Of a DNA stretch of 64,000 bases, positions 23,580 to 45,200 are shown piece by piece. This DNA comes from Amoebidium appalachense (lineage: Eukaryota; Protista; Ichthyosporea): assembly GCA_963693365.1 (NCBI GenBank), contig CAVNZM010000005.1, positions 2,718,342 through 2,782,341 on the forward strand, written 5' to 3'. Position numbers and translations under genes: made by a program. Numbering within the stretch: the first letter of the stretch is position 1; each line of letters starts with the position of its first letter. The notes beneath the pieces were generated by a model. The model was not told the DNA's origin, ran no database searches, and worked only from the letters and a program-made list of their open reading frames with translations.

Positions 23580-23670
23580 AAAGTATGGGTTGGGAACCAC
23601 GCGCGAGAGGTTAAAGAGTCGAAACCCATGCTTTTGTGGAGGCATAGGAACCCCCCTGATGATGGGCTCT
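23580..23670 (+). ncRNA. Hammerhead ribozyme candidate, non-circularly permuted (copy B1)
   Basis: Stem III AAAGUAUGGGU (23580-90) pairs with ACCCAUGCUUU (23624-34), 11 bp. GUU cleavage triplet at 23589-91; GAAAC at 23621-25; CUGAUGA at 23656-62. Stem I GGG (23592-94) pairs with CCC (23653-55). Stem II AGAGUC (23615-20) pairs with GGCUCU (23665-70). Confidence 0.75.
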
Positions 23671-23788
23671 GTTCAAGTATCTTCTGCCTACTCGCTTAAG
23701 TTGTTTGATTTTGGATTTCCCATTTTGTGACGTTTTGTTGATGCTCGTTGTTGTCTCCTCCATATTTCCAACCCTCTAGCGCATACAT
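23580..23788 (+). mobile_element. Family B ribozyme-bearing element with poly(C) 3' end
   Basis: Ribozyme plus a tail of about 120 nt ending CCAACCCTCTAGCGCATACAT, then C29. The tail is shared with 51213-51350 and 15908-15975. The 5' boundary is not defined. Confidence 0.75.
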
Positions 23789-42200: not shown

Positions 42201-45200
42201 GACTATTGTGTGTGTGCTGTCGATGGTGAGGAGGGCCTTGTTAGGGTTGCGCAAAACCGCACTCTCCGTGGGGGCACCTGGGCTGGCCAGTGAAGTCAGA
42301 CTGCCGTTCGTGCTGGCCACAGCACTGCCACTCTGGCAGGGAGGGGAGGGGGGGGGGGTGGGGGGGGGGGGGGGGGAGGAGGTTAGAAGTGCAGTTATAA
42401 CATAAGGCTTGTTAGTCAGAATGGCGGGGTTTATAGAGAGTGAGAGAGAGAGAGAGAGAAGGAGGGAGGGAGGGGGGGGAGGGAGGGAGGGAGGGAGGGA
42501 GGGAGGGAGGGAGGGAGGGGAGGATGGAGGGAGGGAGGGAGAGAGGGGGAGGGGGGGAGGGGGAGAGAGGGAGGGAGGGAGAAAGGAAGAGAGGAAGAGG
42601 GAGGGAGGGAGGGAGGGGCAGAGAGTGGGAGGTAGGGGGGAACAGAAGGAGGGAGAGAGACGAAGGAGGGATCCAGGCACGAGGTTAGGTTCAATGAAGT
42701 CTGAACTCCTAAGCCACCCCTCCCCCTCCCCGCCCTCCTAAAATACCCCAGGGCAATCCTCGGTATACAGTCCATTCTCGTCCTTCCATTTGCAGCGAAA
42801 TTTCGACACGCTCTGAGCCAAGAACACAGCAAGATATCCATGTGCACCCTTGTACTTCTAACGAAATGACCGTGCATTAGCCAGTAAACACGTACGTGTG
42901 TGTGTGTGTGTGTGTGTGTGTGTCTGTGTGTGTGTGTGTCTGTGTGTGTGTGTGCATGTGTGCGTGCATGCGCGTGCGCGCGCGTGTGTGCAGGTGTGTG
43001 GGAAAATGCAGCATGCACAAAAGCGTTATGTTTCCTGTGTGCTCGTCTGTACATGCACGTTTCAAGTGCACACGTGTTTCGTGCGAGTGCACATACATAC
43101 CCGATGCAGGCCCAGGTGTTGTGTGTCGAGGGCTGAGAAGGAGAAGCTGTGGAGGGAGCGGGCCTGGTCGTCCAATGGCGTGGAGGCAGTGCGCCTGACC
43201 GTGTTCTGTGATTGGCTATTGGTCACATGCCCATTGATTATGCTCGTACACAAAAGCCAAAAGAGAAAGGGTGAAAAAAAAGAAGAGAGAAAAGAAACTG
43301 GTGGGATCCACATTGCATTGCTATCCTTCAAAAAATGGTAGCCAACTGACAGCCATCGATTCACGCTGGTAGCTGATACCATATCTATTTGGTTTCCCAT
43401 GCACAGGGTGTGTGTGTGTGTGTGTGTGTGTGTGTGTATGTGTATGTGTGTGTGTGTGTGTGTGTGTGTGCATCTGGTGCACATTTTTTTTGGGGGGGGA
43501 GGGGAGGGGGGGGGGGGGGGGGGGTTTGAATGCGTCAAAAAGTACGAAGTACACAAGAACAAACGGATAACACGATGCAGAATGCAAGCCATACATAAAG
43601 AGTATGCATAATAAGCAGAGCCCATCCTCAGGGGGGGCCCACGTCATCCACAGTACCCGAGTTTCGACCTATTCCCCTCGTTAACGAAACCCAACTCAGA
43701 TACTGTTTCACTTGAACATGAGTAGGTCACCCGTCTTGATCAGAGACGAGCAGGGTTGCTTATGCAGGCAAGGGCAGTGGGAAAGGCCGGGGGGTTAAAG
43801 GGGGGGGGGGGGGGGGGGGGGGGGGCAAAGCAATCGCAGAAGAGTAGGGCAAGCAGATGAAGGATTGTGATATCGCATGGGGAAAAACTAAAATGTGTGG
43901 GGCTTACCGACAAAGTCCTACGTGGATGATAACAGGAATGAGAGGGCACCAAAGGATTATCGTTTTTTTTTTTTTTTTTTTTTTTTTGGTTGGGGGGGGG
44001 GGGGGGGGGGGGGGGGGGGGGGGGAGGATACGCATCAGAAGGTGACAGATATCCATGACCCTCCCCCCCCCTCCCCCCTTCAATTTCTTAAGCGGTGGTG
44101 GTGGGCGAGGGGGGGGGAAGGGGGGGGGGGGGGGGGATAGAAATTAAGAAGAGATCCACGAACCAGCCAACCCCTTTTCCCCCCTTCAACCCCCCCCCCC
44201 CCCCCACAAAAAAAAAAGTATGCGGACTCCTTTTTTTTAAAAATGGACCATCAGCACTGGGGATGAACACACCTGCCTACTCTGTCCCCTCTCCAGTTGG
44301 TATGCCGACCGTCGAAGAGGCTCCGGCATGGGCAGTGAGCCGTAACCTAGGGGAAGGCCGCTAGATGATGCACTGTGTGCGCTCAGCTGTGTGTGTGTGT
44401 GTGTGTGTGTGTGTGTGTGTGTGTGTGTAAGTGTGCGCGTGTGCATGTGTTCGTGTGTGTTTGTACGTGTGTGCATGCACGAGCGCACACGCACCCCTGT
44501 GTGTGTGCGGTGTGCCCGTGCGCACGTGTGTGCGTGTGTATGTGTAAGGTGAGGGTAGGGGTGGGGCTGGGTGGGGGTGGGTTGGGGGGGGGGGGAGGGG
44601 GGGAAGGGGGGGGGATTGATGATGCATGTGTGAATATAGACACAGATCAACAACTACATTCAAATCCTCAAATGATGCTCAAGAAATAGCAGCAGTGGGG
44701 GTGTGGAGCAGGAATCGTACATGCTAATCGGCAGCAAAAATGCAGGCAGCCTTTCTTCAGTTACGGGACACAGACAGGGCAGGTGAGTGTCGATAACCTA
44801 AAAGAAAAATAGAATTGGGTAAGGTGACAGCCAATAATGTGACAAGAGGAGGTTGGTATGTGCACGGGTACCATCTATTTCAGATGTAAGGGGTGTAAGG
44901 TAGAGCCAGGGAAAAGACAGCAAAGATACATGTGGGGGGGAGGGGAAAGGGGGGATGACGTGGGGGATAGTGACGGTGGCGGTGGTGTGTATGTGTGTGC
45001 GTATGTGTGTTGGTGGTGGCAGTGGTGGTGATGGGGAAGAGGGGAGGGGAGGGGGGGGGGGGGGGGGGGGGGGGGGGGGAGGGAAGGCACGTACCCGTCT
45101 TGGTCGGCCACCATTTAGCCTCTGAAAGCTCCCAGAGGTAATCATTCTGCTTGTTCGCTGTGCATGTGTGTGCATGTGTGTGTGTGTGTGTGTGTGTGTG

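Follow-up and report, generated by a model that had tools for sequence, protein, structure and literature searches.

The three conserved blocks of a hammerhead ribozyme can occur in the non-circular order S-G-C (NUH, then GAAA, then CUGANGA), and RNAs of this type SGC self-cleave where predicted, with rates of 0.007-0.19 per min (PMC10085705). In that paper, type SGC was not found in genomes of known organisms, nearly all motifs occur in metatranscriptomes only, the C block (CUGANGA plus adjacent pairs) is assumed to be uninterruptible, and the descriptors specify an S-G linker of 0-8 nt, a G-C linker of 0-15 nt, a stem I of at least 4 bp and exactly CUGAUGA. Here we describe four S-G-C motifs in DNA of the ichthyosporean Amoebidium appalachense (assembly GCA_963693365.1, contig CAVNZM010000005.1, positions 2,718,342 to 2,782,341 of the forward strand; this whole stretch of 64,000 nt is the window referred to below), together with the repetitive element that carries them. 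The reading we favour, with moderate confidence, is an S-G-C hammerhead of ~165 nt with an upstream strand likely splitting its core, carried by a likely non-autonomous Penelope-like retroelement of ~452 nt.

Two groups of described elements are relevant to this comparison. Naiad and most Chlamys elements, both Penelope-like, are reported to be without canonical hammerheads; eight Naiads are flagged 'HHR_half_core', with halves 35-50 nt apart and no fold given in the available portions of the paper, and Chlamys elements insert at (CA)n and (C)n, show 5' truncation and have non-autonomous members arranged head to tail (PMC8557442). The small hammerhead repeats called non-long terminal repeat (non-LTR) retrozymes are found as circular transcripts (PMC7229834) and have been proposed to derive from Penelope-like elements (bioRxiv 10.64898/2026.07.22.740005). 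Hammerhead variants with additional helices or other permutations are mentioned elsewhere (PMC13725137, in part). A search of open-licence PMC and bioRxiv literature found no description of a split-core or kink-turn (k-turn) hammerhead or of a genomic SGC hammerhead.

Re-reading the sequence places GUU, then CGAAAC, then CUGANGA-UG-GGCUCU in all four motifs, here called A1 (23.6 kb), A2 (35.1 kb), A2b (39.7 kb) and A3 (43.6 kb), exactly where a first-pass annotation of the window had put them. That annotation rightly took the order for a non-circular permutation that canonical type I-III searches would miss, and the precedent it mentioned is real, being the type SGC shown to cleave (PMC10085705). 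The catalytic core nucleotides (CUGANGA, GAAA, NUH) are intact in all four copies, three of which have CUGAGGA as the core of the C block. Stems I, II and III adjoin the core: in positional order, stem III has 11, 9, 9 and 13 bp and stem I 3, 4, 4 and 3 bp, while for stem II every copy offers one or more registers of 5-6 bp. The linkers measure 20-21 nt (S-G) and 15-18 nt (G-C). With such an S-G linker, a stem I of 3-4 bp and CUGAGGA in three copies, all four would be missed by the published SGC descriptors.

A descriptor combining NUH, GAAA and CUGANGA with stems I-III matches the four motifs and nothing else in the window, and has no match in 300 dinucleotide shuffles. The 18-nt C-block motif occurs five times against 0.01 expected, the fifth occurrence, at 51218 (+), belonging to a 5'-truncated copy without S and G blocks. 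All four dispersed copies that had been annotated are thus present, but A2 and A2b are 98% identical over 404 nt, so the copies represent three independent families rather than four; A3 is ~80% identical to A2/A2b, and BLAST finds nothing in common between A1 and A2b at E 1e-3. Rfam offers no hammerhead family among the best 150 of 253 matches, the listed rows being low-complexity only. We regard the hammerhead core as very probably real and under selection, and predict from its sequence self-cleavage after GUU.

The structured RNA appears to be considerably larger than the unit first annotated, which was drawn too short: at ~165 nt it begins ~60 nt further upstream, and the constructs proposed for in vitro cleavage omit strands that are probably essential. 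In the minimum-energy fold of A2b, upstream sequence pairs with the G-C linker (a helix we call the scaffold) and with the strand following CUGAGGA (helix IV), hairpin V lies between those helices, and one 6-nt strand is left free. This nested skeleton of helix IV, hairpin V, scaffold and stem III, with a free upstream strand for stem II, emerges as the minimum-energy fold of A2 and A2b when no constraint is set, and A3 shows it when the core strands are held open. Across a four-row MAFFT alignment, 11 of 44 pairs in the extended structure change on both sides (helix IV distal 2/8, hairpin V 2/9, upstream stem II 2/6, scaffold 4/9, stem III 1/5) and pairing is kept in 91% of cells; shifting partners by 1-3 columns leaves 32-48%, a generous control because the structure derives from the aligned sequences themselves. 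All four copies and all three families have, between scaffold and stem III, the sequence pattern of a k-turn (3-nt bulge, tandem GA/GA, C-helix and NC-helix), with distances to the core of 14-15 and 13-14 nt and a constant 15 nt to C3, so that scaffold and k-turn are placed almost identically in each family; in shuffled flanks the pattern arose in 81, 70 and 105 of 20,000 trials per family (0.35-0.5%). The 3n position is G in A1 and A3, which permits ion-induced k-turn folding (PMC4382518, in part); A2 and A2b have U.U, which in A2 lies at 3b.3n and resembles box C/D. None of these parts (helices IV and V, scaffold, k-turn, carrier retroelement) figured in the earlier reading.

The upstream strand left free in this skeleton is the likely source of stem II. 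With the strand before GAAA it forms 5 Watson-Crick pairs in A2 and A2b (-11.2 kcal/mol stacking) and 6 bp in A3 (-11.3 kcal/mol), whereas the local strand GGCUCU, to which stem II had been assigned, gives -9.7 kcal/mol in A2/A2b and 4 bp with two G-U pairs in A3. Two of six pairs change on both sides in the upstream register and none of six in the local one, where the 5' strand never varies. The covariation annotated for stem I largely dissolves, as its aligned columns are invariant, although one pair changes from G-C to A-U when counted by register. It appears fairly probable that the upstream strand supplies stem II, including G10.1, in A2, A2b and A3; the downstream GGCUCU assignment is best for A1 and probably wrong for the other three copies, in which the upstream strand is stronger and covaries.

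In the fold proposed from pairing and covariation, the 5' half would run from the helix IV partner through hairpin V, the stem II 5' strand with G10.1, the scaffold, the k-turn and stem III to GUU and the cut. The 3' half would continue through stem I, a hairpin, the stem II 3' strand, GAAA, stem III, the k-turn, the scaffold partner, the returning strand of stem I, CUGANGA, a U and helix IV. Helix IV, hairpin V, scaffold and stem III would be nested and stems I and II would form as pseudoknots. The core would be split between A9 and G10.1, forming a four-way junction with helices IV and V, and the k-turn would bend the rod of stem III and scaffold back so that loose strands reach the core, replacing the loop I-loop II contact. 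An interaction helix between stems I and II of the published type can be drawn with 4-6 bp; we dropped it, both strands having longer covarying partners upstream. A canonical hammerhead formed across two tandem units, with S and C from one and G from the next, was set aside because the local stem III of 9-13 bp would form first.

With HRIMA-1 and the SGC variants (PMC10085705) this ribozyme shares the S-G-C order, two predicted core pseudoknots, intact CUGANGA, GAAA and NUH, and a U after A9. It differs in that the published RNAs have an S-G linker of ~3 nt, a stem I of at least 4 bp, a C block without interruption and a helix that connects stems I and II at their far sides, whereas the RNA here, set in a nuclear repeat, is predicted to draw a stem II strand from upstream and to form helices IV and V, a scaffold and a k-turn. 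Because the linker features of type SGC are absent, we do not file the element's ribozyme under HRIMA-1 or the SGC variants; a string search for GAUGGGCUC of the element family gave no match in that paper's supplement.

Further parallels come from Naiads. Read by eye in the PMC8557442 supplement, the passages printed before the headers of Naiad_Ovul, Naiad_Omin and Naiad_Dcar have the S-G-C order, a perfect upstream stem II and the scaffold, and two of the three have a k-turn-like loop, although in the octopus Naiad passages the k-turn-like bulge lies on the opposite strand from that seen here. In the passage before Naiad_Dcar, the nucleotide after CUGAUGA is a C that pairs into helix IV beside hairpin V, so that G10.1 must come from upstream and the split is forced. 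The gap between core halves is 35-36 nt in our copies. Unlike the element studied here, which is non-coding, 452 nt long and bounded by poly-C, Naiads are autonomous animal elements of 3.4-4.4 kb targeted to (TA)n (PMC8557442). Other Naiad passages of that supplement, in which GAAAC precedes CUGACGA by ~40-50 nt, are candidates for additional S-G-C variants.

The element itself is defined by its ends. Copies share a 3' end running into poly-C and differ in their 5' ends, which usually follow another C tract. In two of the four sequencing runs compared with 39586-40023, X20 (guessed RNA, depth 60) and X17 (guessed DNA, depth 17), end and start are linked by an identical head-to-tail joint of 14 letters, a C7 run plus 7 nt; adding this to the 438 nt of A2b gives a unit of 452 nt, of which A2b is nearly the whole. 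The copies in the window are single, not tandem. In one DNA run, possibly the one behind this window, 13,750 contigs match 394 nt of the element, a measure of high repetition and not of copy number, and the element stretch occurs, whole or in part, in 20 of 24 listed public runs from five studies, none recorded as RNA. We reject an assembly artefact, since pieces of the ribozyme region with links across blocks occur in runs of several studies. Open reading frames (ORFs) scanned over the element have no protein family match, consistent with a non-coding element. Nine copies or fragments, at 15.9, 16.0, 28.7, 35.0, 39.6, 43.5, 51.2, 55.4 and 57.5 kb, fall within or next to a host gene whose strand is known, and all nine are on the sense strand of that gene, three of them as weak or old BLAST fragments; a ribozyme so placed would cut host pre-mRNA. 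Sense-strand C runs against G runs in three genes number 30 vs 39, 2 vs 9 and 37 vs 10, with no C excess in two.

Taken together, the (C)n insertion bias, 5' truncation and head-to-tail copies are all present as in non-autonomous Naiad/Chlamys elements, and the element likely behaves like one of these or like a retrozyme. It resembles non-autonomous Chlamys elements such as MRC1 in its (C)n bias, 5' truncation, multicopy head-to-tail units and absence of a canonical hammerhead; unlike here, no ribozyme fold is described for Chlamys in the available text (PMC8557442), and partial string searches of the Chlamys part of its supplement did not reveal the S-G-C motif. It resembles non-LTR retrozymes in being a small, non-coding, hammerhead-bearing repeat found as tandems and dispersed monomers, and differs in that theirs are type I hammerheads in animals, with circles (PMC7229834, bioRxiv 10.64898/2026.07.22.740005, each in part), whereas here we have a probably split S-G-C form in a unit of 452 nt known from contigs. 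Mobilisation by Penelope-like machinery is probable, and a circular RNA template has about even chances of being right. Read-through of head-to-tail copies would yield multimeric RNA, which the ribozyme would cut, probably slowly, into 452-nt units, possibly to be ligated into circles. A Chlamys/Naiad-type reverse transcriptase-endonuclease would then nick a C/G tract, whose G strand would prime on the C7 run of the element, and copying would stop at variable points, giving poly-C-bounded copies of up to about one unit with the cut site intact. Because the copies span the intact cut site, the template must be an uncut or religated RNA.

The same ribozyme could instead be carried by a linear RNA resembling a short interspersed nuclear element (SINE) and copied by the enzyme of a long interspersed nuclear element (LINE), the head-to-tail joints reflecting only tandem DNA and no circle. 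Truncation at the 5' end and homopolymer ends are also traits of LINEs and SINEs, one of the two runs bearing the joint (X17) is guessed to be DNA, and a LINE-like 3' remnant lies at ~19.9-20.6 kb, a lead only. That remnant ends at (CA)n and has no sequence in common with the element, the same wiring read by eye recurs in Naiad Penelope-like elements, and for Chlamys both insertion at (C)n and non-autonomous copies joined head to tail have been reported (PMC8557442, in part). We consider a SINE-like vehicle unlikely.

Several observations weigh against the split-core ribozyme in a Penelope-like carrier. With regard to stem II, A1 does better locally (-10.6 vs -6.4 kcal/mol upstream), and its upstream stem II has broken pairs next to the core (U.C, U.U); A1, whose family has two copies 86% alike, is either decayed or in a local or hybrid register. 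Moreover, GGGCUCUG is unchanged in five of five copies; it contains a CUC without a partner in the split model, which does not require this much conservation. With regard to the fold, the covariation comes from three families only, mostly from A1 against the rest, stem I has just 3-4 bp, and a hairpin of the stem I C-tract with GGG predicted in the isolated C-block region hides stem I (-13.1 vs -2.5 kcal/mol in A2, -17.1 vs -6.4 in A3); opening the core strands costs 7-11 kcal/mol before pseudoknot gains, which lie beyond ViennaRNA scoring. With regard to the life cycle, a head-to-tail joint in contigs fits circle and tandem DNA alike, and a scan of 139 of the 534 window ORFs found no reverse transcriptase. 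The cut site is not the start of any copy in the window: A2, A2b and A3 start ~196, 237 and 107 nt upstream of it and the fragments at least 58 nt downstream, nor is any of five listed end-to-copy joints in run X1 (35131, 35159, 35214, 35346, 35388) at that site. Finally, variants at a frequency of at least 3% are about equally dense within the ribozyme (8 of 169 positions) and in the rest of the element (11 of 225), although five of the eight are unpaired or at a helix end, three match the A3 family and none is in the catalytic core.

Two other assignments of stem II compete with the upstream strand. In a hybrid stem II, the U-G-G after CUGANGA would provide the two core-proximal pairs, as it does in published SGC RNAs, and the upstream strand would contribute the distal ones, leaving the core unsplit with stem II as a coaxial stack, or else the registers would switch. 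This is the sole register fitting all four copies: pairing of the upstream strand starts at position 3 in A1 (6 bp), A2 and A3, and U-G-G and U-C are invariant both here and in two octopus Naiad passages. It would, however, sacrifice three G-C pairs atop helix IV in A2, A2b and A3, leave the Watson-Crick upstream G-A of these copies unexplained, and fail for the Naiad passage with C after CUGAUGA (PMC8557442 supplement, in part). On this evidence the hybrid is quite improbable.

A plain type-SGC stem II, in which the strand before GAAA would pair with the GGCUCU after CUGANGA-UG and the upstream strand would serve as a decoy or off switch, is likewise impossible in that Naiad passage. Such a stem has 6 bp in A1, A2 and A2b with 92% of cells paired, it is the best stem II of A1 and accounts for the invariant GGGCUC, and published SGC RNAs carry CUGAUGA-U-G (PMC10085705, in part). 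Against these points stand the absence of pairs changed on both sides (0 of 6), the need for a 2-nt insert or bulged G, an A3 stem of only 4 bp with two G-U pairs, and an upstream partner that is stronger in three of four copies; we judge the plain form very improbable.

Least probable of all is that the fold is real and its copies no longer cut, being relics or locked in the hairpin that hides stem I and retained as a structure for reverse transcriptase recognition: the competing hairpin, the short stem I, the absence of copies beginning at the cut site and a sense-strand location in host introns that would favour weak cutters all suit it, whereas all catalytic nucleotides are retained in three families (A1 without BLAST similarity to A2b), no core variant reaches 3% among 13,750 contigs, and the published SGC ribozymes are slow but active (PMC10085705, in part). 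Returning to an active split-core ribozyme, its fold is complete only ~90 nt past the predicted cut, and this together with the competing hairpin leads us to expect slow cutting, which would suit the sense-strand position in host introns.

Beyond the window, pattern scans returned at least 120 viral loci (from 40 of 64 parts of the collection), 91 metagenome loci and 63 prokaryote-genome loci. Among these 274, a single locus (L191) passed a stricter descriptor, weakly and without family flanks, and none had BLAST similarity to the element; a covariance model scored nothing above 11.4 bits in the 91 metagenome loci, and a split-core pattern matched no viral stretch. These database matches look like chance.

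What is new here is the poly-C-bounded, 452-nt head-to-tail element and an A1 copy that keeps a simpler register in play; the type-SGC order itself is already published (PMC10085705, in part). More speculatively, the ribozyme may represent a seventh hammerhead wiring, a split-core, four-way-junction, k-turn-braced S-G-C form common to animal Naiads and to a (C)n-targeted retrozyme of a possibly non-animal eukaryote, and thus the missing ribozyme of the Naiad/Chlamys clade, a possibility we put forward only tentatively. If true, two interchangeable stem II strands and a self-complementary loop may make a switch, with cutting through refolding or pairing of two units, and such a switch would let thousands of copies sit sense-strand in host introns yet yield replicating 452-nt circles. 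A genomic, high-copy, split-core form would break both limits stated in PMC10085705 as excerpted, the uninterrupted C block and the absence of SGC from known genomes. It would also give the Naiad 'half cores' a testable fold, overturn the view that the Naiad/Chlamys clade manages without hammerheads, and imply that retrozyme surveys using type I/III descriptors miss a class of elements. For RNA engineering, a hammerhead that opens at A9/G10.1 with a k-turn would offer a new insertion point and a possible protein-binding handle.

The self-complementary loops were noticed post hoc. The S-G linkers at 23595-23613 (+), 35167-35188 (-), 39761-39782 (-) and 43670-43690 (-) each contain a perfect palindrome (6, 10, 10 and 10 nt), different per family, with a homoduplex of -15 to -19 kcal/mol, and could let two RNAs pair; the loop of hairpin V is also palindromic in A2, A2b and A3. 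The coordinates of all copies and their parts are collected in Table 1; scanning the window with the covariance model added no whole copy to these.

Table 1. Ribozyme folds, element copies and fragments in the window (window coordinates; predicted cuts fall 3' of the first-named nucleotide).
Feature	Position	Strand	Remarks
A1 ribozyme fold	23518..23683	+	third, divergent family; predicted cut 23591/23592
A1 helix IV	23523-23528 with 23670-23675	+	
A1 k-turn GA	23575, 23639	+	
A1 local stem II	23665-23670	+	6 bp
A1 element	to ~23789	+	runs to poly-C
A2 ribozyme fold	35099..35268	-	predicted cut 35192/35191
A2 helix IV	partner 35265-35258 and CCC 35256-35254; strand 35118-35105	-	
A2 hairpin V	35252-35230	-	
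A2 stem II	upstream strand 35228-35224; 3' strand 35165-35161	-	
A2 scaffold	35222-35213	-	
A2 k-turn	bulge 35212-35210; GA 35209-35208; second GA 35143-35142	-	
A2 stem I	35191-35188 with 35130-35127	-	
A2 GAAA	35160-35157	-	
A2 CUGAGGA	35126-35120	-	
A2 element copy	34992..35388	-	397 nt, 5'-truncated; C run 2 nt upstream, long poly-C downstream; in intron of PAS/kinase gene, sense strand of gene
A2b ribozyme fold	39693..39862	-	predicted cut 39786/39785; upstream stem II strand from 39822
A2b element	39586..40023	-	nearly full-length, 438/452 nt; poly-C both sides
A3 ribozyme fold	43604..43767	-	second family; predicted cut 43693/43692
A3 upstream stem II strand	43728-43723	-	6 Watson-Crick pairs
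A3 k-turn GA	43709, 43648	-	
A3 element copy	43525..43800	-	5'-truncated, poly-C both sides; family continues upstream of this copy (loose contig ends)
A1-family truncated copy	51213..51342	+	starts within C block, between poly-C tracts; 86% identical to A1
A3-family 3'-end fragment	55357..55438	+	98% identical; between C-rich tracts
A3-like 3'-end fragment	57527..57594	+	88%; ends in poly-C
A1-family old 3'-end fragment	15907..15973	-	79%

The surrounding window is intron-rich eukaryotic DNA with RRM/CCCH, PAS, kinase, PH and DDHD exons. In an intron-rich gene at 27.6-44.8 kb (-), kinase exons come after PAS exons; A2 and A2b sit in its introns, and A3 lies upstream of its first confirmed PAS exon. 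The gene resembles PAS kinase, presumably of opisthokont range, and Protein Data Bank (PDB) searches with two of the PAS exons gave no match. At 13581-17896 (-) lies an RBM26/27-like RNA-binding protein gene, the atlas scores of its RBM26-like exon being below 0.9, and PH/DDHD-domain exons occupy 49680-59405 (+); we take both for normal genes of a eukaryote. A 224-codon ORF at 19948-20620 (+), ending just before (CA)n, looks like a LINE-type 3' remnant (atlas score 0.93 to a cluster with zf-RVT on 28% of its members); no longer homologue of this ORF was found. Leucine-rich-repeat-like frames with frameshifts and a stop at 21200-22540 (+), without a Pfam match at E 0.01, are possibly a pseudogene, and an imperfect 240-nt inverted repeat at 6134-6371 (71% self-match) may be a miniature DNA transposon. 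The A1 element is closely followed, at 23978-24807 (+), by three head-to-tail units, each made up of a C-run, ~55 nt of unique sequence and (CT)n, perhaps another microsatellite-linked repeat. The window as a whole contains 99 C runs and 53 G runs of at least 12, many of which may be old insertion scars.

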